Part shown: positions 3 to 47,360 of the stretch, one piece after another | Layout: every line of letters starts with the position of its first letter | Numbering within the stretch: position 1 is the first letter of the stretch | NCBI GenBank assembly: GCA_035293045.1 | Contig: DATDOY010000034.1 | Span: 4,006-68,005, forward strand | Length of the DNA: 64,000 nt | Reading direction: 5' to 3' | Origin: Acidimicrobiia bacterium | Lineage (GTDB): Bacteria > Actinomycetota > Acidimicrobiia > IMCC26256 > JACPCJ01 | The notes under the pieces: model-generated | What the model was told of the DNA's origin: nothing | The model's input: only the letters and a program-made list of their open reading frames with translations | Database searches by the model: none | Translations under genes and position numbers: made by a program

Positions 3-2816
3 GGCTCGTCGGCCGGCAGTGCCAACTCACCCGGCGACTACCCCGACTCCTACTCGGCGGGCGCCACCGACCAGAACGACGCCATCGCCTACTTCTCGAG
101 CCGCGGCCCCTCGTGTTACGGCGAGACCAAGCCCGAGGTTTCGGCGCCGGGCGTCAGCGTCCGATCGAGCGTGGCCGGCGGTGGGTTCGCCGAATTCAGC
201 GGAACATCGATGGCCACCCCTCACGTCGCCGCCGCCGCCGCGCTCGTGATCGAGGCCGGAGCCGGCGCGGTCGATGTTTCCGACGCGGAATCGACCCTCA
301 CCGAGACCGCTCGAGACCTCGGAGCGACCGGTGCGGACAACACCTTCGGCGCCGGCCTCATCCAGATCGACGACGCGGTGATCTCCGCCCTCCAAGGCGG
401 CACGGTGACGGGGACGGTGACCGACAGTGGCGGCGACCCCATCGCCGGGGCGAAGGTGACGCTCGAAGGCAGCAGCCTCGCCACGCGCCGGACCATCACC
501 GACGGCGCCGGCATCTACCGCGTCCGAGCCCTCGCCGGCTCGTACGACGCCACGGTGTCTGCCTTCGGGTACATCGCGGAGACGACACCGGTCACGGTGA
601 CGGAAGGCACGACGGTGACCGCCGACGCGTCCCTCGCCCTCGCCCCGCAGGTCACGCTCTCGGGGACGGTGCGTGAAACGCCGGCCGACACGCCGCTCGA
701 GTACGTCGAGGTCACGGTGAAGGACACGCCGCTGGCCCCCGTCCACACCAACGCCGCCGGTGAGTACGCCTTCGTGCTCCCGACCGGCACGTACGAGGTG
801 TCCGCCCATCTCGACGGGTGCCGCGAGGACGGCCTCGCCACCATCGCCTTGAACACGGACGCGACCCACGACTTCGACTTGGCTCGGCTCATCGACGCCA
901 GCGGCTACGTGTGCGACCGCGTCCCGTTCACCGACGAGCGCGGCTCCACGAAGGTGCCGCTCTCGGGGTACTACTACTCGAAGCGCGCCCAGATCACCCT
1001 GCCGTTCACCTTCGACTACTTCGGCGAGCAGTACACCAGCGCGTGGGTGAACTCCAACGGGTTCCTGGCCTTTGAGAAGAACCCCCTCGACGTCGAAAAG
1101 CCGGACTGGGTCAACCGTGGGATTCCCGATGCGGCGCGTCCCAACGTCGCCATCTACGCGCTGTGGGACTTCCTCAACGTGCGCGGGAGTGAGCGCGGCA
1201 TCTATACGGCGACCTTCGGCGATGCCCCCAACCGCCGTTTCGTCGTCGAGTACCGCAACTTCGAGGTCCAAGCCACCGGCGACCTCGTCAACTTCTCGAT
1301 CGTGTTGTTCGAGAACGGGACGGTGGAGACCCGGTATCGCAGCCTCGAAGGCGTCGGGAACGGCCAGTACGCCACCGTGGGCATCGAAGGGCCGGGCGGG
1401 CGCCACGGCCTCGAGTACTCGCGCGACGAGAACCTGCTCGACGACGCGTCCGCCCTCCGGTATTTCGCGTCCGCTGACGTCGGCATCGTGACCGGACAGG
1501 TCACCGAGGCCGCCGAGGGACACCCGCTCGCCGACATCGAGGTCTCGGGTGGGGGGCTCACGACCGCGTCCGGCGTCTCGGGCCGATACCAGCTCGCCCT
1601 GGCCCCAGGCACCCACGACGTGTCGGTTGCGGTGCCCGCGGGGTACGACGCGGCGGGCGCGTCCGTCACCGTCGCCGCCGGCGACACGGTGACCGCGGAC
1701 TTCGCGTTGGCGGGGCCCCGCGCCGTGCTCTCACCGGAGTCGCTCGCCTTCGACGCCGAACTCGGCGTACAGGCCGCACCGGTGACGCTGGCCAACACGG
1801 GAAGCAAGCCCCTCGACTACGAAGTCGAGGCCAGCGGCTCGATATCCGCCGGCGACGCCGACGATGACTCGGGCGGGATCGTCGAGGTCGAGGACGCCAG
1901 CGCGGTCGCCGCGGCGGGCAACGTTGCCTTCCGCACCAACTTCTCCGACGCCACGCCCATGAACGAGCTCTACGGTCGGTTCCTCATCGACAGCGACCGC
2001 AACGAAGCGACCGGCGACTCCGAATATTGGTGGGAGGGGAAGGACACCCAACACCTCGGCGTCGACTACGTCGCCTACTTCTCGACCTTCTACGAGTTGG
2101 TCTGGGTGTACCACACCGACAGTTACAACCGGGTCGGCACGTTCCCGCTCGAGATCGACGGTTCGAGCGTGGCCTTTGACGTCGCGCTGAGCGTCCTGGG
2201 GAACGACGAAGGGGACCTGAACTACGCAATGTCCGTCGGTGACCTCAACGACTACTGGGATCCACAGGACTACGCGCCCGACGTCGGCCATGGCACGACG
2301 GCCGGCGAATGGCTCGACGTCGACCTCGCCTCGGGCACGCTCGAGCCGGGTGGCGTCCTCCCGGCGACGCTCACCGTCGATCCTGAGGGCGTGCGGGCCG
2401 GAACCAACCATGGTCTCGTGATCGTGCGGTCCAACGACGCCCTGTCGCCCGAACTCATCGAGGTGACGCTGACGTCGCCGGAGGACACCGAGCCGCCCGA
2501 AGTGGCGTGGACCACCACCGACGGCAGCGTGGTAGGGAACAACAACGTCAGCGGCGTCGAGACATTGCCGTCGATGAACGGGACGGCGGTCGACCTTGGG
2601 TCGGGAATCTACCGAGTGGTGGTGAAGTTCGTTCCCGTCCTTTCGACGGGCACGTCACCCTTCGAGCGGGTCGCCACCCTGGCCTGCAATGGGGCGGGAA
2701 CCTCGTGCACCTGGAAGTCGACCTCACCGATCGGGCAATACCGCGTGACGCCGGTCGCCACCGACGGCATCGGCAAGGTGACGGCGGGCCCGACGATCAC
2801 GATCACCGCCGTCTGA
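3..2816 (+). CDS. Subtilisin-like (S8) serine peptidase, 5'-truncated by the window edge, with repeated beta-sandwich modules and a long C-terminal extension
   Basis: Frame 3 is open from nt 3. Translation reads ...[25 protein letters not shown]...[18 protein letters not shown], the S8 catalytic Ser motif GTSMATPH. Downstream are carboxypeptidase-regulatory-like modules ([24 protein letters not shown]...). Listed ORF 171..2816 is the same frame. Confidence 0.85.
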
Positions 2817-2838
2817 ACACATCTGGAACAATGGGGAG

Positions 2839-3354
2839 ATGAGCGAAACCTCGTCTCCCCCAATCGCCACGACAACCGAACGCGCGACGTTCGCCGCCGG
2901 ATGCTTCTGGGGGGTCGAGGACGCCTTTCGTCACGTGCCCGGCGTCGTCTCGACCCGGGTCGGCTACACCGGCGGCGACGTCGACGAGCCCACCTATGAG
3001 CAGGTCTGCTCGCACACCACGGGGCACGCCGAGGCGGTCGACGTGACCTACGACCCGACCGAGGTGTCGTTCGAGGAGCTCGTGGAGTTCTTCTGGCGCA
3101 TCCACGACCCGACCCAGATCAACCGCCAGGGACCCGACGTCGGCGACCAGTACCGCACGGCGATTTTCGTGCACGACGAATCGCAGCAGAAGGCCGCTGA
3201 GGCGTCCAAGGAGGCACTCGAAGCGTCAGGGATCCTTCCCACCGCGGTCGCCACCGAGATCGTGCCGGCGGAGACGTTCTGGGAAGCCGAGGACTACCAC
3301 CAGCAGTATTTCGAAAAGCGCGGGATGGCCGGCTGTCACCTGCCCAACGACTAG
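2839..3354 (+). CDS. msrA: Peptide-methionine (S)-S-oxide reductase MsrA
   Basis: 171 aa with the hallmark GCFWGVE active-site motif near the N-terminus. Length is typical. Confidence 0.93.
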
Positions 3355-3818
3355 CGCGCTTCCGCCTCTTCCTTGATCCTCGCGAGGGTCTCGCGCATGC
3401 CGTTCGCGTTGTGCTCGTCGCGTTCGGCGATGCCGGTGGCCGCCCGTCCGAGGAGCTTGATGAGCCCGCCCCGCTTGTCGTCCCACCGCTCCGTGACCCG
3501 TGAGCGACCCTCGCCGGCCTCTTCGATCAGATAGGTCCACCGCGCCACCGGCAGGCCACCCACCGAGGCGATGTCGAAGCTCAGCTCCTGACCCGGCTCG
3601 GCCGCGACCACCGTGCCCTTGGTGTTCCATCGTCGCCAACCGAGGCGGTTGTAGCCCTTGAAGCGGGCGCCGGGCACCGCACCGCTCGCGCCGCCCCGCC
3701 ACTCACACTTCACGCACTCGGGACTCCACTCACCCATCCGCGGCAGGTCGCTCACCAACTCGTAGATCCGGATGGGTGGCGCTTCAATGTCGATCGAGAC
3801 TTCCACGCGGTCAGCCAT
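3351..3818 (-). CDS. SRPBCC (polyketide cyclase/dehydrase-like) family protein
   Basis: 155 aa. The N-terminus [35 protein letters not shown] is typical of SRPBCC/START-like proteins. Its stop overlaps the msrA stop in a shared CTAG. Confidence 0.7.
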
Positions 3819-3827
3819 TCGGTGAGC

Positions 3828-5003
3828 CTATGTCGGGTCGGGAGGCGGGAGCACCGCGGCGAGGTAGACGGCGCGCACGGCGAACACCTCGTGCACCTCG
3901 GCGACGACGTCCTCGTAGAACTCGCGGCGGTAGGTCTCGTCGGTCAGCGCCACCACCGTGAAGTAGAGGCCGGAGAAGGCGGCGAGGAAACCGGCGACCC
4001 GCAACAGCTCCTCGGTCAGAGGCACCGGCTGACCCCACAGCCGCCAGTCGGCCAGGACGTGCGCGCTGCCGCCCGTCCACGCCTCGATGGTGGGCACCCT
4101 CATCGTGATCAGTCCGAAGGCCACGAAGAAGGCGCCGATGAGGACGGCCACGAACGCGATCTGCAGGCCCTGGCTGAACAGCACGACGAGGCCCACGTTG
4201 CCCCACTCCTTGCGCGACAGCGACGGGGCTGGCGTGACCGGACGGCGGGGCGTGAGCGCCGACGCCGGGGTCGGGGCCACAAGGCGCCGAAGCTCGTCGT
4301 CCGACTCGAAGGTGGCGAGGTCGCCGATCTCGCGCGGGAGGCGCGTCACGACGAAGACCACGCCGATGACCACGAACAACATCACGGTGACCCAGAAAAA
4401 CGGCCCAGTCAGCGAGGCCGACACTTGCCAGACCTCGGCGTTCACGAACAGGAACGTCACGAACAGCAGCAGGAGTGGCAGGGCCCGCACCAGCAAGTTG
4501 AAGAGGTCCCCCACCTGCCGGGCCGATCTCCCCAACCCCCAGCGGGTCATCGGGACGATGCCGTAGCTTGTGACGAGGTAGGTCCCGCCGACGAGGGCGA
4601 TGTTGAATCCCGCGGTCAGGACGGCGGAGCGCACTTGGCCGCCGAAGACCAGGGGGAGGATCGGCGGGACCAGGACGAACACCGCGAGGTCGGGGGGGCC
4701 GATCCGCTGAGGCCGCGCCAGCGCGGGGCGGTGGCGGAGACGGTTCCCGACCGCCAGGCCTCCGACGAGGATGGCGACGCCACCGAGCGCGGCGAGGACG
4801 TTCAGCCACCACGGCCACTCGAGGTTGAGCGCGCCGACCACTTCGACCACGAAGATCAGTCCGAGCAAGGGGACGGCGCGGGTGAGCACGTCTCGCGAGG
4901 CGCTGTATTGGAAGATGAAGTGCGGGATCCCGCGCGCCACGAACCATCGTTCGGTCTCCGCCACTGCGTCCGGCGCCGGGTCCAAGTTGGCGAGGCTAGT
5001 CAC
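3828..5003 (-). CDS. Polytopic integral membrane protein, function unknown
   Basis: 391 aa with many hydrophobic segments (LLGLIFVVEVVGAL, ALGGVAILVGGLAV, LPLLLLFVTFLFV, etc.). GTG start at 5003. No recognisable catalytic motif. Confidence 0.6.
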   Translation of the reverse strand: MTSLANLDPAPDAVAETERWFVARGIPHFIFQYSASRDVLTRAVPLLGLIFVVEVVGALNLEWPWWLNVLAALGGVAILVGGLAVGNRLRHRPALARPQRIGPPDLAVFVLVPPILPLVFGGQVRSAVLTAGFNIALVGGTYLVTSYGIVPMTRWGLGRSARQVGDLFNLLVRALPLLLLFVTFLFVNAEVWQVSASLTGPFFWVTVMLFVVIGVVFVVTRLPREIGDLATFESDDELRRLVAPTPASALTPRRPVTPAPSLSRKEWGNVGLVVLFSQGLQIAFVAVLIGAFFVAFGLITMRVPTIEAWTGGSAHVLADWRLWGQPVPLTEELLRVAGFLAAFSGLYFTVVALTDETYRREFYEDVVAEVHEVFAVRAVYLAAVLPPPDPT

Positions 5004-5016
5004 CTACATTCGCCCG

Positions 5017-5808
5017 GTGGACGCCATCGAGTTCTACGGCCTCGAACGCCTCGAGCGGTCCCGGTGGCGCATGCCGGTGGTCTCGCAACTGTGTTCGGGC
5101 ATGGGGGCGCTGTTCGGGGGCGCCGCGCTCGGCGGGCTTGTCGAAGCGCTCGAGCGCGAAGCAGGCCGTCCTCTCGTGTGGGCGACCGGCCAGTACCTCT
5201 CCTACGCCCATCCGCCCGAAGTGCTCGACATCGAGGTCGTCCTCGCCGTCGAAGGGGGCTCGGTGACCCAAGCCCGCGCCATCGGGTCGGTCGACGGTCG
5301 TGAGATCCTCACCGTGAACGCCGCCCTCGGCCGGCGGGCGTTTCCTCACGCGGGTCAGTGGGCAGAGATGCCGTCGGTGCCTCATCCCGACGACTGCGAG
5401 CCCCGCAAGCTCCACTACCGCCACGGCGGCACCATCAGAGAGCGCCTCGACGACCGCCTGGCCAACGCTCGCGAGCCCGAGGACCTGAGCGGGGAACCCA
5501 GCTCGGGACGGGCGTCGGTCTGGGTCCGCATCAAAGACGCGCCGATCACGGCCAGCACGCTCGCCATCGTCGGCGACTACGTCCCGTTCGGCATCAGCCA
5601 GTCGCTCGGCGAACGAGCCGGTGGCAACAGCCTCGACAACACCCTGCGGGTGGCGCGCCTCGTCGATACCGAGTGGATCCTCGCCGACGTCCACATGCAT
5701 TCCATCCAGGACGGGTTCGCCCACGGTCGGGTGCACCTGTGGGCCCAGGACGGAACGCTCCTGGCCACGGCGAGCCAATCGACCATCGTCAGGCCCTGGC
5801 GGCCGTAG
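5017..5808 (+). CDS. Acyl-CoA thioesterase (TesB-like double hot-dog)
   Basis: Same frame as ORF 4771..5808. The start is trimmed to GTG 5017 because the upstream part overlaps the divergent membrane gene. The ending ...HMHSIQDGFAHGRVHLWAQDGTLLATASQSTIVR resembles the acyl-CoA thioesterase II C-terminus. Confidence 0.65.
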   Translation: MDAIEFYGLERLERSRWRMPVVSQLCSGMGALFGGAALGGLVEALEREAGRPLVWATGQYLSYAHPPEVLDIEVVLAVEGGSVTQARAIGSVDGREILTVNAALGRRAFPHAGQWAEMPSVPHPDDCEPRKLHYRHGGTIRERLDDRLANAREPEDLSGEPSSGRASVWVRIKDAPITASTLAIVGDYVPFGISQSLGERAGGNSLDNTLRVARLVDTEWILADVHMHSIQDGFAHGRVHLWAQDGTLLATASQSTIVRPWRP

Positions 5809-5818
5809 CATCCCCGTC

Positions 5819-6751
5819 GTGCTTGCCGCCCCGCTCACCGCCGAACGCCTCCACGAGGTCTGCGGGACCGATCCGACCTGGGTCTGCCGGCGCGTGCTCG
5901 ACGGCACCGACAGCGACGTTCTCGCCCAGACGGCCGACTGGATCGTGGCCAAACCCCTGGTCATCCTCCTCATCTTCATGGGTGCATGGGTCGCCAACCG
6001 GCTGATCGGCCGGGCGATCCGGCGGTTCGCCGCCCAGGCCAAGGGAGAGGGCTTCGGCCGGAGAGTCCACGCGCTCCGCACCACGACCGCAAGGCGGGCG
6101 AAGCGCACCGACGCGGTCGGCGCTGTCCTGTCGTCGGTGGCAACCGCCGTCATCTACACGATGGCCGCCTTCATCGCGCTCGGAGAGCTCGGCCTCAACC
6201 TCGGGCCGCTCATCGCCGGGGCCGGCATCGTCGGGGTGGCGATTGGCTTCGGGGCCCAGAGCCTCGTGCGCGACTTCCTGAGCGGCCTCTTCATGATCAT
6301 CGAGGACCAGTTCGGCGTGGGCGACATCGTCGACCTCGGGGTCGCGGCCGGCACCGTCGAAGGGGTCAGCCTCCGCACAACGCGCGTGCGCGACGTCAAC
6401 GGCGTCGTGTGGCACGTGCCCAACGGCGAGATCCACCGGGTCGGCAACAAGTCGCAGGACTGGGCACGCGCGCTCATCGACGTCCCGCTCGCGCTCGGCA
6501 CCAACGTCGACCGGGCTGCCAGCGTCATCGGCGACGTGGGACGCGATCTGTGGAGCGACGAATCGTTCCAGGGCGTGATGCTCGAGGAGCCCGAGGTGTG
6601 GGGCGTGCAGGATCTGGGCAAGGACGGCATGGCCATCCGCCTCGTCGTGAAGACGAAGCCGGGCGAGCAGTTCAAACTCGAGCGGGAGCTGCGCACGCGC
6701 CTCGCCCGCGCCTTCGAGGACGAAGGCATCGCCGCGCCGGCGCCGGAGTGA
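5819..6751 (+). CDS. Small-conductance mechanosensitive channel (MscS family)
   Basis: Contains GIVGVAIGFGAQSLVRDFLSGLFMIIEDQFGVGDIVDLG, the MscS pore helix/beta-domain signature. Start chosen at GTG 5819, after the thioesterase stop. Confidence 0.85.
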   Translation: MLAAPLTAERLHEVCGTDPTWVCRRVLDGTDSDVLAQTADWIVAKPLVILLIFMGAWVANRLIGRAIRRFAAQAKGEGFGRRVHALRTTTARRAKRTDAVGAVLSSVATAVIYTMAAFIALGELGLNLGPLIAGAGIVGVAIGFGAQSLVRDFLSGLFMIIEDQFGVGDIVDLGVAAGTVEGVSLRTTRVRDVNGVVWHVPNGEIHRVGNKSQDWARALIDVPLALGTNVDRAASVIGDVGRDLWSDESFQGVMLEEPEVWGVQDLGKDGMAIRLVVKTKPGEQFKLERELRTRLARAFEDEGIAAPAPE

Positions 6752-7990
6752 CTACAGATAGATCAGCGGGTTGACCGGCGTGCCCGACTGACGCACCTCG
6801 AAGTGGAGATGCGGGCCCGTTGACAAGCCAGTCGATCCGACGGCACCCACCAGCTGTCCTCGGGTCACGTTCTGGCCCACGCCGACACTCACCGACGACA
6901 TGTGCGCATAGAGGGTGGCGAGCGTGTTGCCGTGGTCGATGATCACGGTGTTGCCGTATCCGCCGCGCGCTCCGGCCCACACCACCTCGCCGTCACCCGC
7001 GGCGACGACGGGCGTCCCCGACCGAGCCCCGAAGTCGACGCCGTTGTGCATGCGCGTCACGCCGAGGATCGGATGGCGGCGCGATCCGAAACCGCTCGTG
7101 AGCGCAGCCGAGATCGGCACACCAAGGAGTCCCGACCCGCTCCCCACGAAGACCTGGCCGCTCTGGCGACCGCGAAGCATCCCGGCGATGGAGTTGGACT
7201 CGGCCTGGAGTGCGTTGAGTTCGGCGTTGAACCGATCCTTCTGGGCGTGCACCTTCGCAAGGAGGCGTTCCTGGTTGTTGACCGCCGCGGCAACCTGGCC
7301 GCGGGCCCGCTGCTGTTCGGCCTTCAGGGAGGCGATGTTGGCCCGCTCGGCGGCGACGACGTCTCGGGCGGCGCGCGCCTCGTCCCGCTCGTCCTCGAGC
7401 CCTGCACGCATGTATTCGACCCGCTCCTTGAGGAGGACAAGACGATCGACGCGGTCCTGGTCGATCTCGGCGACGATCGACAGATACTGCGCGCCGGCGA
7501 TGAGGTCCTGCGGCGTGGCGGCGTCGAGGGCGAGATTGGTCATCACGGCGACCCGACCACCCCCCCGCTGGCGATACAGCTCGGAGGTGATGTCCCCGAC
7601 GTCGTCTTTCATCTCGTCGATGTTGGCGCGCGTCTCGTGGAGCTTTGCGGTGAGGGCGAGGTAGCGGGCGTCGAGCCGCTGCACGTCGGCTTCCGCGACG
7701 GCCACGCGATCCGACGCTGCGGCGAGCTCCCGATCGATGCGGGCGATGGCGGCGTCGAAGCCGTCGAGCTGGGCCTGGGTCTCGGAGAGCTCGCCGAGAA
7801 GCTCAGCCTCCTCGGCCGACGCCTCCCCGATAGCCGCCTTCAGCTCCCGGATGCGCTCCTCGATCTCCCGCTGGCGGCGCGCCTCAGGGGCCGTCGTGCT
7901 CGTGGTGCTCGTGGTGCTCGTGGTCTGGGCGCCCGCGTTCGGACTGACCAGCAGGGCGCAGAGCGCGAGAAGGAGAGCGCGGGCACGCAT
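6752..7990 (-). CDS. Secreted coiled-coil M23 (LytM-type) peptidoglycan endopeptidase, EnvC-like architecture
   Basis: Signal peptide MRARALLLALCALLVSPNAGA, then about 250 aa of heptad-rich coiled coil. The C-terminal M23 domain has intact HNGVD (HxxxD) and GPHLHFE (HxH) metal ligands. Confidence 0.85.
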   Translation of the reverse strand: MRARALLLALCALLVSPNAGAQTTSTTSTTSTTAPEARRQREIEERIRELKAAIGEASAEEAELLGELSETQAQLDGFDAAIARIDRELAAASDRVAVAEADVQRLDARYLALTAKLHETRANIDEMKDDVGDITSELYRQRGGGRVAVMTNLALDAATPQDLIAGAQYLSIVAEIDQDRVDRLVLLKERVEYMRAGLEDERDEARAARDVVAAERANIASLKAEQQRARGQVAAAVNNQERLLAKVHAQKDRFNAELNALQAESNSIAGMLRGRQSGQVFVGSGSGLLGVPISAALTSGFGSRRHPILGVTRMHNGVDFGARSGTPVVAAGDGEVVWAGARGGYGNTVIIDHGNTLATLYAHMSSVSVGVGQNVTRGQLVGAVGSTGLSTGPHLHFEVRQSGTPVNPLIYL

Positions 7991-43303: not shown

Positions 43304-44314
43304 TCATCGGGCTCGCCCGGCCCACGCCGCTTCGTCGATCGGGCCCCTCGCTTTGAGCGGTTCCCACCAGTCCCGACGATCCGCGTACCACTCGACCGTC
43401 GCCTTCATTCCGTCCTCGAACGGAATCTCCGGCGCCCACCCCAACTGAGACTGCAGCTTGGTGGAGTCGAGGAGGTACCGCCGGTCGTGTCCGGGGCGGT
43501 CAGGGACGATCTCCTTGAGCGAGGCCGGTTTCCCGAGCGCGCCGAGCACCGCGTCGGCGATCTCCTCGATGCTCTTCTCGACGCCCGTCCCGACGTTGTA
43601 GGTCTCCCCCACCGTGCCCTTGTCGATGACGGCTTCGATCCCGCGACAGTGGTCGAGCACGTGCACCCATTCACGTCGGTTCTGGGTCGATGCATACAAC
43701 GGGAGCGGCAAGTCGTCGAGCGCATTCGTGGTGAACAACGGAACGACCTTCTCGGGGAACTGATATGGGCCGTAGTTGTTTCCGCCGTTGGTGATGGTGA
43801 TCGGAAGCCCGTACGTCTCGTGATACGCGCGCACGGCGTGGTCCCCGGCCGCCTTCGACGCGTTGTACGGCGTGCGCGGCCGGTAGGGCGAATCCTCCCG
43901 GAAGACATCGGAAGAGTCGAGGGCGAGGTCGCCGTAGACCTCGCAGGTGGAGATGTGGTGGAAACGGCCGACGCCCACGCGACGCGCGGCCTCGAGCAGC
44001 GTCTGGGTGCCGAGGGCGTTGGTGCGAAAGAACAGCCCCGGATCCACCACCGCCAGGCTGTTGTGCGACTCCGCGGCAAAGTTGACGACGACGTCGACGG
44101 AGTGCTCGGCGAGGAGCGCCTCCATCAGCTCGAGGTCTCCGATGTCTCCCTCGACGAACACGATCCGATCTTCGACATCGATGAGATTGGCGCGGTTGCC
44201 GGCGTAGGTCAGCTTGTCGAGGGCAACCACCGAGTCGCCGGGATGGCCCTCGAGCCAGAAGCGCACGAAGTTGGAACCGATGAACCCGGCCGCGCCGGTC
44301 ACGAGTACATGCAT
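43304..44314 (-). CDS. rmlB: dTDP-glucose 4,6-dehydratase
   Basis: 336 aa: MHVLVTGAAGFIGSNFVR...YNASKAAGDH (YxxxK). Typical length. Confidence 0.93.
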   Translation of the reverse strand: MHVLVTGAAGFIGSNFVRFWLEGHPGDSVVALDKLTYAGNRANLIDVEDRIVFVEGDIGDLELMEALLAEHSVDVVVNFAAESHNSLAVVDPGLFFRTNALGTQTLLEAARRVGVGRFHHISTCEVYGDLALDSSDVFREDSPYRPRTPYNASKAAGDHAVRAYHETYGLPITITNGGNNYGPYQFPEKVVPLFTTNALDDLPLPLYASTQNRREWVHVLDHCRGIEAVIDKGTVGETYNVGTGVEKSIEEIADAVLGALGKPASLKEIVPDRPGHDRRYLLDSTKLQSQLGWAPEIPFEDGMKATVEWYADRRDWWEPLKARGPIDEAAWAGRAR

Positions 44315-44367
44315 GGGGATTCAGCGTAGGACGAGGCTTCCGCTCGCGCCGAAGGGGCGCCTGCCTA

Positions 44368-44407
44368 CGGGATGCTGAGGCCGCGGGTTCAAATCCCGCC
44401 GTCCCGA
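44368..44407 (+). other. tRNA-Pro-like acceptor/T-arm minihelix (truncated tRNA remnant, not a functional cloverleaf)
   Basis: CGGGATG-CTGAGGCC-GCGGG-TTCAAAT-CCCGC-CGTCCCG-A. It has a 7-bp acceptor-like stem (one G-U), a perfect T-arm with a TTCAAAT loop, a C1-G72 pair and discriminator A, as in bacterial tRNA-Pro. There are no D or anticodon arms. Confidence 0.45.
44383..44404 (+). repeat. Left copy of the 22-nt perfect direct repeat GCGGGTTCAAATCCCGCCGTCC
   Basis: Identical 22-mer at 45830-45851. Coordinates were checked against the reading frames of ORFs 44421.. and 45797... Confidence 0.9.
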
Positions 44408-44449
44408 CTCAGGGTCAACGTTGCGGACGCCTGAAACGAAGCCGCGCCC

Positions 44450-45504
44450 TCACACGGCGCACCCCACAACAACCCGGCCGTCGCAGTTGTTTGGCGTGTT
44501 CCCTGAGAAGTCGACGCCTAGAGCCACCGCGATCCCGCGGTTGTGCATCCCGCCGCCCCCGAAGGCCGCGTTGCCGCTCACGCTCCCCCCCTCATGGTCA
44601 AGACGCCAAGGTCCTGGTTGAGGATGCCGCCGCCGTTGGCCTCGGCGGTGTTCTCGATCACCTGGCTGTTCTCGAGGTCCACGATGCCCGCGTTGTAGAT
44701 GCCTCCGCCCTCGTAGACACCCCAAGGACCGGCGGCGGGCGTACCGGCGGAGTTCCCGCTCACGGTGCTGTCGATCAGCGTCACGGTGCCGTGGTTGCGG
44801 ATGCCGCCGCCAAAATGGGCGGTGTTCCCGCTCACGGTGCTGTCGATCAGCGTCACGGTGCCCCCAACCAAGTTGAAGATGCCGCCGCCCGAGTTGGCGG
44901 CGTTCCCGCTCACCGTGCTGTCGATCAGCGTCACCGTGCCGCGGTCATTGGAGATGCCGCCGCCCGCGTCGGCGGCGTTCCCGCTCACGGTGCTGTCGAT
45001 CAGCGTCACGGTGCCGCCAGCCAAGTTGAAGATGCCGCCGCCCTGGGACAAGAAGTCTGAGATGAGGCCTCCTGAGATCGTGGTGTTCGAGAGACGGAGA
45101 CTTCCGGGGCCACGCACCAAGAAGATGCCGAACTCTGTGGCGGTGGGGCTGCGGACGATCGTTGACCCTCCTCCGTTGATGGTGATGGGGCGCTCGACCA
45201 CTGGCAGGCCGAGGGGTCCGAAGAGAAAGGTGGTGGGCCCCGTGAGCGTGTAGGTGCAGCTGGGTTGGCTGTCGGCGTTCAGGTTGATCACCGTCGGACC
45301 AGCTGTCGCCCCCATCGCGTCGATGAGTCCCCCTACCTCCTCGCACCCAAGGTCGATTTCGACCACACCGTCTGCCCGCGCGGGAAGAGGAAGCAAGAGC
45401 AGCCCTACGACGCCGATGGCCATCGCAAGAGCCACGCCGGGTCGTCGGCTTCCGTCGCGAAGGGCGCCAAGGGCCCAGCCCCTGCGCCCGCGAGTGATGC
45501 TCAT
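44450..45504 (-). pseudogene. Secreted right-handed beta-helix repeat protein (PMP/choice-of-anchor-type GGGI..N/TVSGN repeats), frame broken at a G7 run
   Basis: ORF 44578..45504 has a signal peptide then repeats GGGIFNLAGGTVTLIDSTVSGNAA.... It stops just after a homopolymer (C7 on the plus strand, 44585-44591). The repeat continues in ORF 44450..44725 (..GGSVSGNAAFGGGGMHNRG..). One extra G would fuse them into about 351 aa. Confidence 0.7.
44752..45015. repeat. Four tandem copies (72-78 bp period) of a 39-bp near-identical core inside the beta-helix gene
   Basis: GTTCCCGCTCACGGTGCTGTCGATCAGCGTCACGGTGCC occurs at 44752, 44824 and 44977 identically. The copy at 44902 has 2 substitutions. Confidence 0.9.
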
Positions 45505-45829
45505 AGCCCCTCCAGCCGCGACGAGACACGGAAGCGCCGGTCGATGCTTCTATGTCTTTCTACGTCGAAGGCGGGGCTGCATGCGCGATCAGCCGAGAAA
45601 CACCCGCAGGTAGTCGGAAGCCTTCAGGACATCGTTCAGTGATTCACGAAGCTTCGAACCTTCACGACATCGTTCAGCCTCCGATGTCGTAGTAGAGGCC
45701 GCGGCGTGCCGATCTCGCGCTGGCGGTCGTCCGCTTCGCGGGCCGTTATGCCTGGGGCCAGATGAAGCCGATAGGCGCCCCGGCCTGCGGGTTTGCGTGT
45801 CCGACGCCGTGAGGGACCGGAGGTGGTCA

Positions 45830-45851
45830 GCGGGTTCAAATCCCGCCGTCC
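45830..45851 (+). repeat. Right copy of the 22-nt perfect direct repeat (tRNA T-arm plus acceptor fragment)
   Basis: GCGGGTTCAAATCCCGCCGTCC. No matching 5' acceptor strand, D arm or anticodon arm lies upstream. Confidence 0.9.
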
Positions 45852-45914
45852 GAGACGATCCGCGGCGGCTCGGTCCGCCTCCGTCGTTGCCTGTGCGTAG
45901 ACGGTCAAGGTCAG

Positions 45915-45933
45915 CCGTAGGGATCGCCTACGG
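45915..45933 (-). terminator. Hairpin downstream of the LCP gene
   Basis: CCGTAGG-GATCG-CCTACGG has a 7-bp stem and lies 18 nt after the LCP stop codon. It is homologous to the arms of a longer hairpin at 44321-44371. Confidence 0.4.
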
Positions 45934-45950
45934 GTGCGAGTCAGAACCCG

Positions 45951-47360
45951 TCAGCATTCCGGCGAGGGGTCCTGGCCCGCCGGCTCCGGCTCCTCGGTCT
46001 GACCCTGCGCCGGCCCGACGCTGCGCACCGAGGCGACGGGATCCATCGGGAGGCCGAGCGACTCCTCGGCCGGCGTCGAAACACCGGTGAAGTCGGCTCC
46101 GACGACGACCACGAGGTCGGCGTCGATGCCGATCGTGGTGTCCTCGACCAGCTTGCCGCGGCCCCCGAGATACTGCTTGAGCAGCTCGGCCTTGTTCTCC
46201 TCACCGGGCCGGTAGTGAATCTCGGTCTGGGAGTACCCGAACCGTTCGGCGTCACCCGCACCGGCTGGAAGGAACCCGACCTCGGCGAGCTGGCGCGATG
46301 TCCGCGTCGCCACCCCAGAACCACCGGTGCCGTTGAGCACGCGCACCTTCACGGACGACGGGGCGACGCCCCCGCCGATCGAACCTTCGCCCCGGAGCCG
46401 AGCGAAGAGCGCGGCCGCCTCCGCCTCGCGGAGCAGCACCACGGACTGGGCTCCCTTGCGGCCCACATCGGCGGGCAGCTTCGCCATCTCCACGTCGTTG
46501 GGGTCGCCGCTGCGAAAGACCCGCACCAGCTTGAAGATGTCGCCGGTGCTGAGATCGGTGTCGAGGGTGACGTTCTTCAGTCCCTTGTTGATGAGGTCGT
46601 TGCCCCGAGCCGGATTGCCGAACCCGCTCTCGAGGCTCTGGGCGATGAGGCGGCGGATGAAGTCCTGCTGCCGGTTGATGCGGCCGAAGTCGCCGCTCGG
46701 GTCGGTGCGCCAGACGCCCGACTCGAAGTACTGGTAGTGACGCGACCGGACGAGGGCGAGCGCCTGGTCGCCGTCGAGGGTCGTGCAGCCCGCCTCGGCC
46801 ACGTTCAAGCCGGTCTTGGGGTCGCGCGCCGGCGCCGCCGAATAGATCTCGACGCCCCCCATGGCGTCGACGATGTTGCGGAAGCCGGCGAAGTCGACCT
46901 GCACGTAGTGGTGAATCGGGATGTTGAAGTTGGTGCGGATCGTCTCGATGACGCCCTGCGGCCCGTCCTGGAAGGCGGCGTTGATCTTCGACCCCCCCTT
47001 GCCCGGGATCTCGACCCAGAGATCTCGCGGGAGCGACACGAGCAGCGCCTTCTTCGTCTTGGGGTCGATGCGCACCACGATCAGGGTGTCGGCGCGTTCT
47101 CCCCCGACCTCGCCGAAACTGGCGGCGTCTTGTTCGGTGCTCACGAAGGCGCGCGAGTCGCTCCCGAGGATCAGGAAGTTCTCGCTTCCCTTGTCGAGGC
47201 TGAGGTCGACGCGCGGCGCTCCCGCGAGCTTGTTGTTGATCCACCAATAGGCACCCGCGATCCCCGAGAGCATGAACACGCTCGAGACGAGCAGGGCGAT
47301 CAGGAACCGGTGGAACCACGCCGTCCGCGCAGACGCGCTGGAGAAAATCCGAGGAGACAC
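45951..47360 (-). CDS. LytR-CpsA-Psr (LCP) family cell-wall glycopolymer ligase
   Basis: 469 aa with an N-terminal TM. The LCP core reads NFLILGSDSR...RADTLIVVRIDPKTKKALLVSLPRDLWVEIPG...KINAAF. A C-terminal LytR_C-like domain follows. Confidence 0.9.
   Translation of the reverse strand: MSPRIFSSASARTAWFHRFLIALLVSSVFMLSGIAGAYWWINNKLAGAPRVDLSLDKGSENFLILGSDSRAFVSTEQDAASFGEVGGERADTLIVVRIDPKTKKALLVSLPRDLWVEIPGKGGSKINAAFQDGPQGVIETIRTNFNIPIHHYVQVDFAGFRNIVDAMGGVEIYSAAPARDPKTGLNVAEAGCTTLDGDQALALVRSRHYQYFESGVWRTDPSGDFGRINRQQDFIRRLIAQSLESGFGNPARGNDLINKGLKNVTLDTDLSTGDIFKLVRVFRSGDPNDVEMAKLPADVGRKGAQSVVLLREAEAAALFARLRGEGSIGGGVAPSSVKVRVLNGTGGSGVATRTSRQLAEVGFLPAGAGDAERFGYSQTEIHYRPGEENKAELLKQYLGGRGKLVEDTTIGIDADLVVVVGADFTGVSTPAEESLGLPMDPVASVRSVGPAQGQTEEPEPAGQDPSPEC

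Follow-up and report, generated by a model that had tools for sequence, protein, structure and literature searches.

The secondary attachment sites of phage lambda are an example of integration at pseudo-attachment (pseudo-att) sites, and the elements of actinomycetes offer further points of comparison. In the integrative and conjugative elements of actinomycetes (AICEs), the identity segments of the attachment (att) sites overlap the 3' ends of tRNA genes, tandem integration leaves a 44-bp att between the elements, remnants of elements are known, and pSE101 integrates at multiple sites in a foreign host (PMC2440964). Recombination at tRNA genes is placed at two sublocations, the anticodon loop and the T-loop (bioRxiv 10.1101/2020.11.02.365908). 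Fragments of tRNA genes serve as attR sites (PMC9897764), and cis-mobilizable elements (CIMEs) have been defined as a further class (PMC6323972). A locus that can be set beside all of these lies in a stretch of 64,000 nt from an Acidimicrobiia bacterium (assembly GCA_035293045.1, contig DATDOY010000034.1, positions 4,006 to 68,005), referred to below as the window. Here, a 1563-nt insert separates rmlB from a LytR-CpsA-Psr (LCP) gene and carries two copies of a perfect 22-nt, tRNA-like direct repeat (the 22-mer). The insert is probably a composite, decayed remnant of two tandem elements with tRNA-Pro-type att, located in a secondary site outside any tRNA gene.

Read along the + strand, the locus consists of native spacer, a core GCC-TACGGGA-TGC, the 3' half of a tRNA-Pro(CGG) gene with copy 1 of the 22-mer, a 1.4-kb cassette without integrase, copy 2, the stub of an integrase gene (int), the core again and native spacer. 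The cassette holds a terminator, a frameshifted beta-helix gene and the upstream region of that gene. Coordinates are collected in Table 1.

The LCP-rmlB spacer carries an insertion with exact junctions

Homologues of LCP and rmlB place the organism in Acidimicrobiia. In seven contigs from five related organisms (L128/L135, L130/L131, L132/L133, L136 and L137, with 59-69% identity to the window in LCP or 78-84% in rmlB), the LCP stop codon is followed by the rmlB start codon after 19, 24 or 84 nt. The 1609-nt contig L155 provides an empty site that can be aligned: its LCP shares 94% amino-acid identity with that of the window, and its spacer of 76 nt, compared to 1636 nt in the window, is alignable on both sides. 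By blastn, L155 1-1522 aligns to window 47445-45926 (90.4% identity) and L155 1513-1608 to window 44372-44277 (89.7%). The two alignments overlap by 10 nt of L155, which match both window junctions; the insert is therefore 1563 nt long and is flanked by a junction repeat of 10-13 nt, GCCTACGGG(A)TGC. Such a comparison needed L155, as the L128 spacer showed no significant homology to either junction of the window.

The segment is an insertion, as an earlier note on this DNA had proposed, and relatives with rmlB abutting LCP, for which that note had suggested to look, do exist. It was found neither that all relatives carry the beta-helix gene without the repeats nor that the 22-mer is a dispersed sequence unrelated to tRNA, the two outcomes the note had named as contrary to its view. 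Its boundaries have to be moved, however. The note had taken the 22-mers as the limits of the islet, whereas the L155 alignment sets the ends at the two junction cores and leaves copy 2 inside, 74 nt from the right junction. A second, imperfect repeat that it listed (44321-44380 against 45911-45941) is present, and its central 12-13 nt are the true junction repeat in the L155 alignment, but as a local alignment the pair does not rise above chance (56/1000 and 84/1000 shuffles). Five metagenome contigs of the same species, each from a different sample, are 99.8-100% identical to the window without indels and all contain the insert; source metagenomes for this species are ENA ERZ27254861, ERZ27254795 and ERZ27254865 and JGI 3300025324 and 3300002124. 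Because these independent contigs agree, both the arrangement and the frameshift in the cassette are real and no artefact of assembly.

In + orientation, the native site of L155 reads ...CTGCC TTCGGGA AGCGG GTCAGAAACCCG TCA, with the core in the version GCC TTCGGGA AGC, and a real tRNA-Pro(CGG) reads CAGCG TTCGGGA CGCTG. The empty site matches the anticodon loop at all seven positions and the flanking stem at 3/5 positions on either side, and the heptamer TTCGGGA occurs only 7 times in 128 kb (both strands of the window). No tRNA and no tRNA-like Rfam match was found in the L155 empty site. Its reading as an ancient decayed tRNA is unsupported by these searches and by a whole-tRNA comparison (below). 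The landing site thus appears to be a mere mimic of the anticodon loop that never was a tRNA gene.

This bears directly on the simplest model of the earlier note, in which a single element entered a resident tRNA-Pro gene and is bounded by the 22-mers as attL and attR, with later decay of tRNA and integrase. The empty sites of L155 and of the five other organisms hold neither a tRNA nor a recognisable fragment of one, sequence absent from L155 continues past copy 2 for the 74 nt mentioned, and what lies to the left of copy 1, past the anticodon loop, is native spacer that L155 has as well. L155 thus contradicts a resident target, which is highly improbable even though the 22-mer comes from the 3' end of tRNA-Pro, 42 nt of a 3' half survive at copy 1, and 22-nt identity segments over T-arm and acceptor are typical of att sites (bioRxiv 10.1101/2020.11.02.365908). 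Equally improbable is the arrival of a transposon or insertion sequence with a 9-10-bp target-site duplication. It would account for the 10-nt direct duplication of the target at both junctions, but direct comparison of the insert ends revealed no terminal inverted repeats, no transposase-like open reading frame (ORF) was found, and the tRNA 3' half follows in register on the duplicated target, an arrangement that transposition would not produce.

Two tRNA-Pro-derived repeats and the remnant of an integrase gene

Two exact copies of the 22-mer GCGGGTTCAAATCCCGCCGTCC lie in the window, one at 44383-44404 and one at 45830-45851, both on the + strand and as the earlier note had reported; there is no third copy in the window at up to 3 mismatches (shuffle expectation 0). 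Neither copy belongs to an intact tRNA, again in agreement with that note, since ARAGORN found none in the whole window. Rfam gave no match to the window at gathering thresholds, only partial ones at the level of the T-arm. One genome per GTDB species was scanned for the 22-mer, which yielded at least 120 stretches, and ARAGORN was applied to 80 of them. In 61 of these 80 loci, mostly from Actinomycetota and Gemmatimonadota, the 22-mer is the 3' end of a tRNA-Pro (GGG, CGG or TGG), which bears out the proposed identity as a T-arm with the start of the 3' acceptor strand, closest to tRNA-Pro. It lies in tRNA-Leu at 3 loci, all non-actinobacterial, and the other 16 hold no tRNA; there, identity to tRNA-Pro begins at the anticodon loop or stem, as expected of attR-type fragments. 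Both 22-mers of the window derive from tRNA-Pro. As for the three tRNA-Leu loci (L007, L022 and L077, from Sphingomonas, Lachnospiraceae and Peptococcaceae metagenome-assembled genomes, MAGs), the 22-mer ends a tRNA-Leu (TAA or TAG) and continues as GCACCA; the T-arm and the first acceptor bases are therefore common to isoacceptor families across phyla.

The two copies differ in what surrounds them. At the left junction, the core runs in register into the tRNA-Pro(CGG) 3' half that contains copy 1, a stretch (44366-44407) composed of TACGGGATGCTGAGGCC, the 22-mer and CGA. It is identical at 39 of 42 positions to genuine tRNA-Pro(CGG) 3' halves, and the 42-nt pattern, when 3 of its positions are degenerate, matches 22 genuine tRNA-Pro(CGG) loci. 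Taken alone, the 22-nt stretch on the left side of the 22-mer agrees with tRNA-Pro(CGG) at 17/22 positions, a score reached by 1 of 300 shuffles, and the half is followed by CTC, the same as at native genes. Copy 2 is tRNA-like within the 22-mer only: its left flank is at chance (79/300 shuffles), its right flank is the integrase tail, and its acceptor continues as GAG where copy 1 has CGA. Neither copy can form a cloverleaf, copy 1 being a 3' half only and copy 2 a T-arm plus 5 nt only. An upstream extension of the 22-mer repeat was marginal (13/500 shuffles) and is not relied on.

Perfect conservation of 22 nt in both copies amid differing flanks could also be a sign of selection on functional tRNA-like RNAs that serve in processing, termination or regulation, and a 7-bp minihelix resembling an acceptor stem (CGGGAUG/CGUCCCG) is possible within the 3' half. 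Predicted folding is no better than that of shuffled sequence (z -0.7 to +0.2), however, the segments are antisense to all neighbouring genes and absent from every relative, and the sharp edges of identity are explained by att recombination, all of which makes a functional RNA the least probable of the alternatives. The minihelix has an origin of its own: the anticodon region CGGGACG of tRNA-Pro(CGG) equals the sequence of its 5' acceptor strand (window 44368-44406, and any such 3' half), and in the 3'-half att fragment CGGGAUG can pair with CGUCCCG in a helix stacked on the T-arm. The Rfam mascRNA model aligns the 3' half as that minihelix with 18.6 bits.

Abutting copy 2 on the opposite strand is what its homology identifies as the 3' stub of a tyrosine-integrase gene, some 25 codons long (RLTLTVYAQATTEADRAAADRLG). 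Window 45852-45925 matches a locus in another Acidimicrobiia MAG, L051, at 77.6% identity over 58 nt (E 1e-8, short-word blastn), and tblastn gives E 4e-8. The minus strand of the window reads SLRLTLTVYAQATTEADRAAADRLGRR, where L051 has ..VDVRTAQARLGHSDPRLTLAIYAQATGEADRAAAARIG..; the L051 fragment covers positions 137-169 of the 172 in PF00589. A phmmer search with the 47-residue window peptide against 1.84 billion representatives returned 8 matches at E<=1e-3, and a ..YAQAT.EADRAAA.. tail was found in 7/7 fetched matches. When five of the phmmer matches were compared to Pfam, two exceeded the PF00589 cutoff (P0363 with 35.9 bits and P0364 with 46.7 bits), two fell below it and one gave no match; P0363 and P0364 also show HDLRR...LGHSDPRLTLAVYAQATTEADRAAADRLG.RF.

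What is left of the gene runs from RLTL through the catalytic Tyr (codon 45897-45899) to the tail, while the LGHSDP motif and everything upstream were cut at the right junction. The last conserved codons of the stub (G-R-R) overlap copy 2. In the family, conservation (G-x-R) enters the 22-mer, and the int 3' end therefore overlaps the tRNA-like att. This canonical layout, with a tRNA-att next to the int 3' end on the opposite strand, is also seen in a Gemmatimonadota locus, L024. The earlier note had stated that no integrase is present. It was right insofar as searches of ORFs and of Pfam and PHROG with six-frame peptides found no complete integrase gene in the insert; it overlooked the C-terminal stub of about 25 codons with the catalytic-Tyr motif, which the six-frame Pfam and PHROG searches missed as well. 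A blastx comparison of the islet to the ORFs around 120 tRNA-Pro loci gave, among the matches listed, only spurious ones over tRNA sequence.

L051 deserves a description of its own. At 6503-7630, a tRNA-Pro(CGG) is followed by about 800 nt with small ORFs and then by the truncated C-terminus of a tyrosine integrase, a homologue of the stub in the window. The tail of this L051 stub, too, overlaps a degenerate T-loop/acceptor-like sequence (AACCGCGCC--CCGA). The array of remnants parallels that of the window, but at a genuine tRNA gene.

How the insert may have been assembled

Three steps would account for the composite. First, a tyrosine-integrase element whose attP carried a tRNA-Pro(CGG) 3' half overlapping the int tail would have recombined with the TTCGGGA pseudo-attB of the spacer, with a crossover within the anticodon loop, one of the two symmetric sublocations that such integrases use. 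Second, the beta-helix cassette would have used the T-arm/acceptor 22-mer of the tRNA-like arm as its own att (tandem accretion); alternatively, accretion may have preceded arrival at the LCP-rmlB spacer. Integration of the cassette at the 22-mer would be the cause both of the perfect 22-nt identity with abrupt edges and of the distribution of flanks, in which copy 1 has a tRNA-like left flank and a right flank (CGA) that completes the tRNA, whereas copy 2 is bordered by foreign sequence at the left and by the int tail at the right. Third, the older element would have been lost by a deletion that reached from within int to the right-hand core and may have used short similar sequences, GCC.A.G.GGG and the int sequence that in L051 reads GCCGAGGCGGG. 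The order of these events is held with less confidence than the composite origin itself. On this model, the empty-site junction is predicted to read GGGGCGCCTGCCTACGGG(A)TGCGAGTCAGAACCCG, loss of the cassette to leave GATGCTGAGGCC plus the 22-mer plus GAGACGATCCGCGG, and a circular cassette to carry GGAGGTGGTCA plus the 22-mer plus CGACTCAGGGTC.

Several observations weigh against a composite remnant of this kind. Compared to a whole tRNA, the L155 empty site shows no significant similarity (111/1000 shuffles). Both window cores read TACGGG, but L155 and real tRNAs have TTCGGGA, so that the ancestral target sequence is given only approximately. The insert has no complete integrase, excisionase or transfer gene, so that the case for an integrase acting at this site is an indirect one. 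The right junction lies inside the int gene and calls for an extra deletion that ended exactly at the core; the microhomology named above, between the LGH codons of int and the core, could explain this end. Since the acceptor of copy 2 has GAG rather than CGA, the att of the older element would not restore a perfect tRNA. Finally, no genuine tRNA-Pro gene of this species was found, a metagenome scan with the 36-mer of copy 1 having matched this locus only.

A right junction within the int coding sequence, with no natural element end, would also suit a different origin, in which a linear 1.56-kb piece of a tRNA-Pro(CGG) locus (of this or another genome) was captured through microhomology or illegitimate recombination, with the 22-mers and the stub as passengers. 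The piece would have started in the anticodon loop, included an accreted cassette and ended within the integrase gene next to it, and no integrase would have acted at the spacer. The whole structure would then stem from a single event, short homology is possible at the left (native GCCTTCGGGA and tRNA GCGTTCGGGA) as well as at the right (native GCCTACGGG and the int LGH codons, as above), and L051, from the same class, has just such an array of tRNA, insert and int stub at a real tRNA-Pro(CGG). Still, capture would require that both fragment ends share microhomology with the same 10-nt target, plus duplication of that target, which is unusual for end joining. The target comprises the full 7/7 anticodon-loop heptamer and partly matching stem flanks, as a secondary att of an anticodon-loop-specific integrase should look, and no donor locus was found. 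Capture of a fragment is therefore unlikely, although it is not to be dismissed as readily as the other alternatives.

Returning to the composite remnant, it appears to be immobile by itself and decaying, with no detectable function beyond a possible phase-OFF surface-protein gene. A more tentative idea, and one that is rather doubtful at present, is that a tRNA-like att arm, once laid down at a non-tRNA pseudo-site, became the landing pad for a second, T-arm-specific element. If true, hot spots of integration can be newly founded by integrative elements at a distance from tRNA genes, in this case in a cell-wall glycopolymer gene cluster, and would escape island finders that use tRNA genes as anchors.

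The cassette, its surroundings and comparison with known systems

Table 1. Features of the insert and its flanks (window coordinates)
Feature	Position	Strand	Basis
rmlB (dTDP-glucose 4,6-dehydratase), native left neighbour of the insert	43304-44314	-	ORF, Pfam families; identical protein so named by NCBI in an Acidimicrobiia MAG
Native spacer, rmlB side (B arm), with conserved TACGCT-N8-ATG motif upstream of rmlB	44315-44362	.	aligns to L155 empty site
Left junction core GCCTACGGGATGC, with anticodon-loop-like heptamer TACGGGA at 44366-44372	44363-44375	+	L155 alignment
tRNA-Pro(CGG) 3' half from anticodon loop to discriminator A, holding 22-mer copy 1	44366-44407	+	39/42 identity to real genes
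Hairpin resembling an intrinsic terminator, in overlap with the frame-B stop codon of the beta-helix gene	44441-44458	-	
Cargo gene for a secreted beta-helix protein, frameshifted	44450-45504	-	ORFs, homologue names, PF02415
Non-coding upstream region of the cargo gene, 64% GC; ends at the right as the flank of copy 2	45505-45829	.	
Copy 2 of the 22-mer (T-arm and 5 acceptor nt), internal to the insert	45830-45851	+	
3' stub of tyrosine-integrase gene, reads RLTLTVYAQATTEADRAAADRLGRR	45843-45917	-	blastn, tblastn, phmmer
Right junction core GCCTACGGGTGC	45926-45937	+	end of L155 alignment
Native spacer, LCP side (B' arm)	45938-45950	.	aligns to L155
LCP gene, native right neighbour of the insert	45951-47273	-	PF03816 and PF13399

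The beta-helix gene is encoded on the minus strand, as are rmlB and the LCP gene. Its ORF at 44578-45504 is carried on in another frame to 44450; the frameshift falls in a run of seven G on the gene strand (C7 on the + strand, 44585-44591), where G8 would restore the frame and the repeat motif ..MRGGSVSGN... In the reconstructed protein of 351 aa, the N-terminus is signal-peptide-like and the repeats take the form GGGIxN...TVTLIDSTVSGN. Homologues go under the names of choice-of-anchor Q, CSLREA or polymorphic outer membrane protein (Chlam_PMP, PF02415) repeat proteins; the nearest non-self ones are 450-600 aa long and only 38-51% identical. No close orthologue, donor, second copy or other genomic context of the gene was found, and against phages and plasmids the islet produced only beta-helix repeat matches, on Streptomyces plasmids. 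A homopolymer frameshift is the classic layout for slipped-strand phase variation in surface-protein genes, and the gene is possibly phase-variable and OFF here. The length of the G7 run is the same in the window and in all five same-species contigs.

The description of the cassette as a frameshifted beta-helix gene and about 325 nt of AT-richer non-coding DNA between the 22-mers was accurate, the latter region having 64% GC compared to 69% in the window; in six frames, it has no Pfam or PHROG match. A check of composition had also been suggested. The cargo does deviate, though only mildly: the cassette has 66.2% GC compared to 69.1% in the window, and its tetranucleotide distance lies in the top 0.3% of windows, a value inflated by internal 75-nt repeats. 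The composition of the cargo is mildly atypical. Within the non-coding region, two 19-nt direct repeats, CCTTCA(G/C)GACATCGTTCAG (45621-45639 and 45659-45677), stand 38 nt apart and 117-173 nt upstream of the beta-helix start; they could be an operator or a pair of regulator-binding sites.

On the rmlB side, TACGCT followed after 8-9 nt by the rmlB start codon (window 44315-44330) is found in all of the relatives L128, L132, L136, L137 and L155, even where the spacer measures 19 nt. There is no Shine-Dalgarno sequence upstream of rmlB, and the motif looks like the -10 element of a leaderless or very-short-leader rmlB transcript.

Copies of the 22-mer without a tRNA elsewhere flank integrase-bearing islets and proviruses (L024 and L140/L142). 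In L024 (Gemmatimonadota, 1779-7011), a 5.1-kb islet comprises a tRNA-Pro, a PF00589 integrase on the opposite strand with its 3' end adjoining the tRNA, PRiA4_ORF3, AbiEi/AbiEii and the fragment. L083 (Gemmatimonadota, 940-2165) has an islet of 1.15 kb between a tRNA-Pro(GGG) and its fragment; it lacks an integrase and has a single 226-aa ORF without a Pfam match. An IMG/VR provirus contig carries a tRNA-Pro at one place and a fragment at another. The reconstructed attP had no match in IMG/VR, and no tRNA-Pro locus was found in synteny with the window. Apparent T-arm-like duplicates near other att fragments turned out to be neighbouring tRNA genes. In another Acidimicrobiia MAG (L037, 3975-4167), the sequence downstream of a tRNA-Pro(CGG) holds a direct fragment of 18 nt, AAATCCCGCCGTCCCGAC, and two 17-mers that resemble a T-arm in inverted orientation, with repeats of about 40-60 nt (gcatgcgcagaggcttca...) beyond the 17-mers; this cluster of micro-fragments suggests repeated integration and decay. 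Many Actinomycetota loci have a same-strand ORF of about 400 aa downstream of tRNA-Pro(CGG), which is not used as evidence.

The locus offers a base-resolved example of how tRNA-targeting elements may enter a secondary site, undergo accretion and decay until a single-gene islet flanked by att and an integrase stub are left. For annotation, it is a caution that orphan tRNA halves can occur far from any tRNA gene and that the most conspicuous perfect repeat need not be the boundary of an insertion. The biological effect is limited. LCP is split from rmlB, the conserved motif upstream of rmlB is kept, and a frameshifted, possibly phase-variable surface beta-helix gene is brought to a cell-wall locus. 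No new principle emerges, and current understanding is unchallenged.

Set beside elements that target tRNA genes by means of tyrosine integrases (islands, prophages and AICEs such as pSAM2 at tRNA-Pro), the insert is alike in that its att copies a tRNA 3' half (anticodon loop or T-loop to the 3' end), the remainder of int adjoins the tRNA-like att on the opposite strand, direct repeats of a tRNA 3' end flank the cargo, and relatives have the empty site. It differs in that an intergenic pseudo-attB was used and no intact tRNA partner is involved, and in its size: int is reduced to about 25 codons, xis, rep and tra genes are absent, and the whole insert is 1.56 kb. Of the AICE modules (int/xis, rep and FtsK-like tra), none is complete; the insert has one cargo gene and the int stub, and no other ORF with a Pfam or PHROG match. 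As in secondary integration, of which pSE101 at multiple sites in Streptomyces lividans is an example (PMC2440964), the site is similar to the normal attB in its core or overlap part only. In this insert, the similarity consists of the 7-nt anticodon loop with partly matching flanks, the integrase is gone, and the event is deduced from comparative sequence alone. Orphan tRNA fragments (attR) are listed as pseudo-tRNAs by tRNA finders (PMC9897764), and both copies are in the same way partial tRNA-Pro genes left by integration of a mobile element, except that there is no full-length partner within 64 kb and the locus itself appears never to have held a tRNA gene. Like a CIME, the segment 44405-45829 between perfect 22-nt att-type repeats encodes the beta-helix gene only and no integration or transfer genes, and the cassette forms a tandem with what remains of an element that had an integrase, the middle att being common to both. 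CIMEs were defined in Streptococcus integrative and conjugative element systems with experimental mobilisation, whereas in this insert the partner element is dead, att is partly degenerate and any mobility is putative. Each ingredient has a precedent in the literature, and taken together the insert seems to be a decayed example of an ordinary, known phenomenon.

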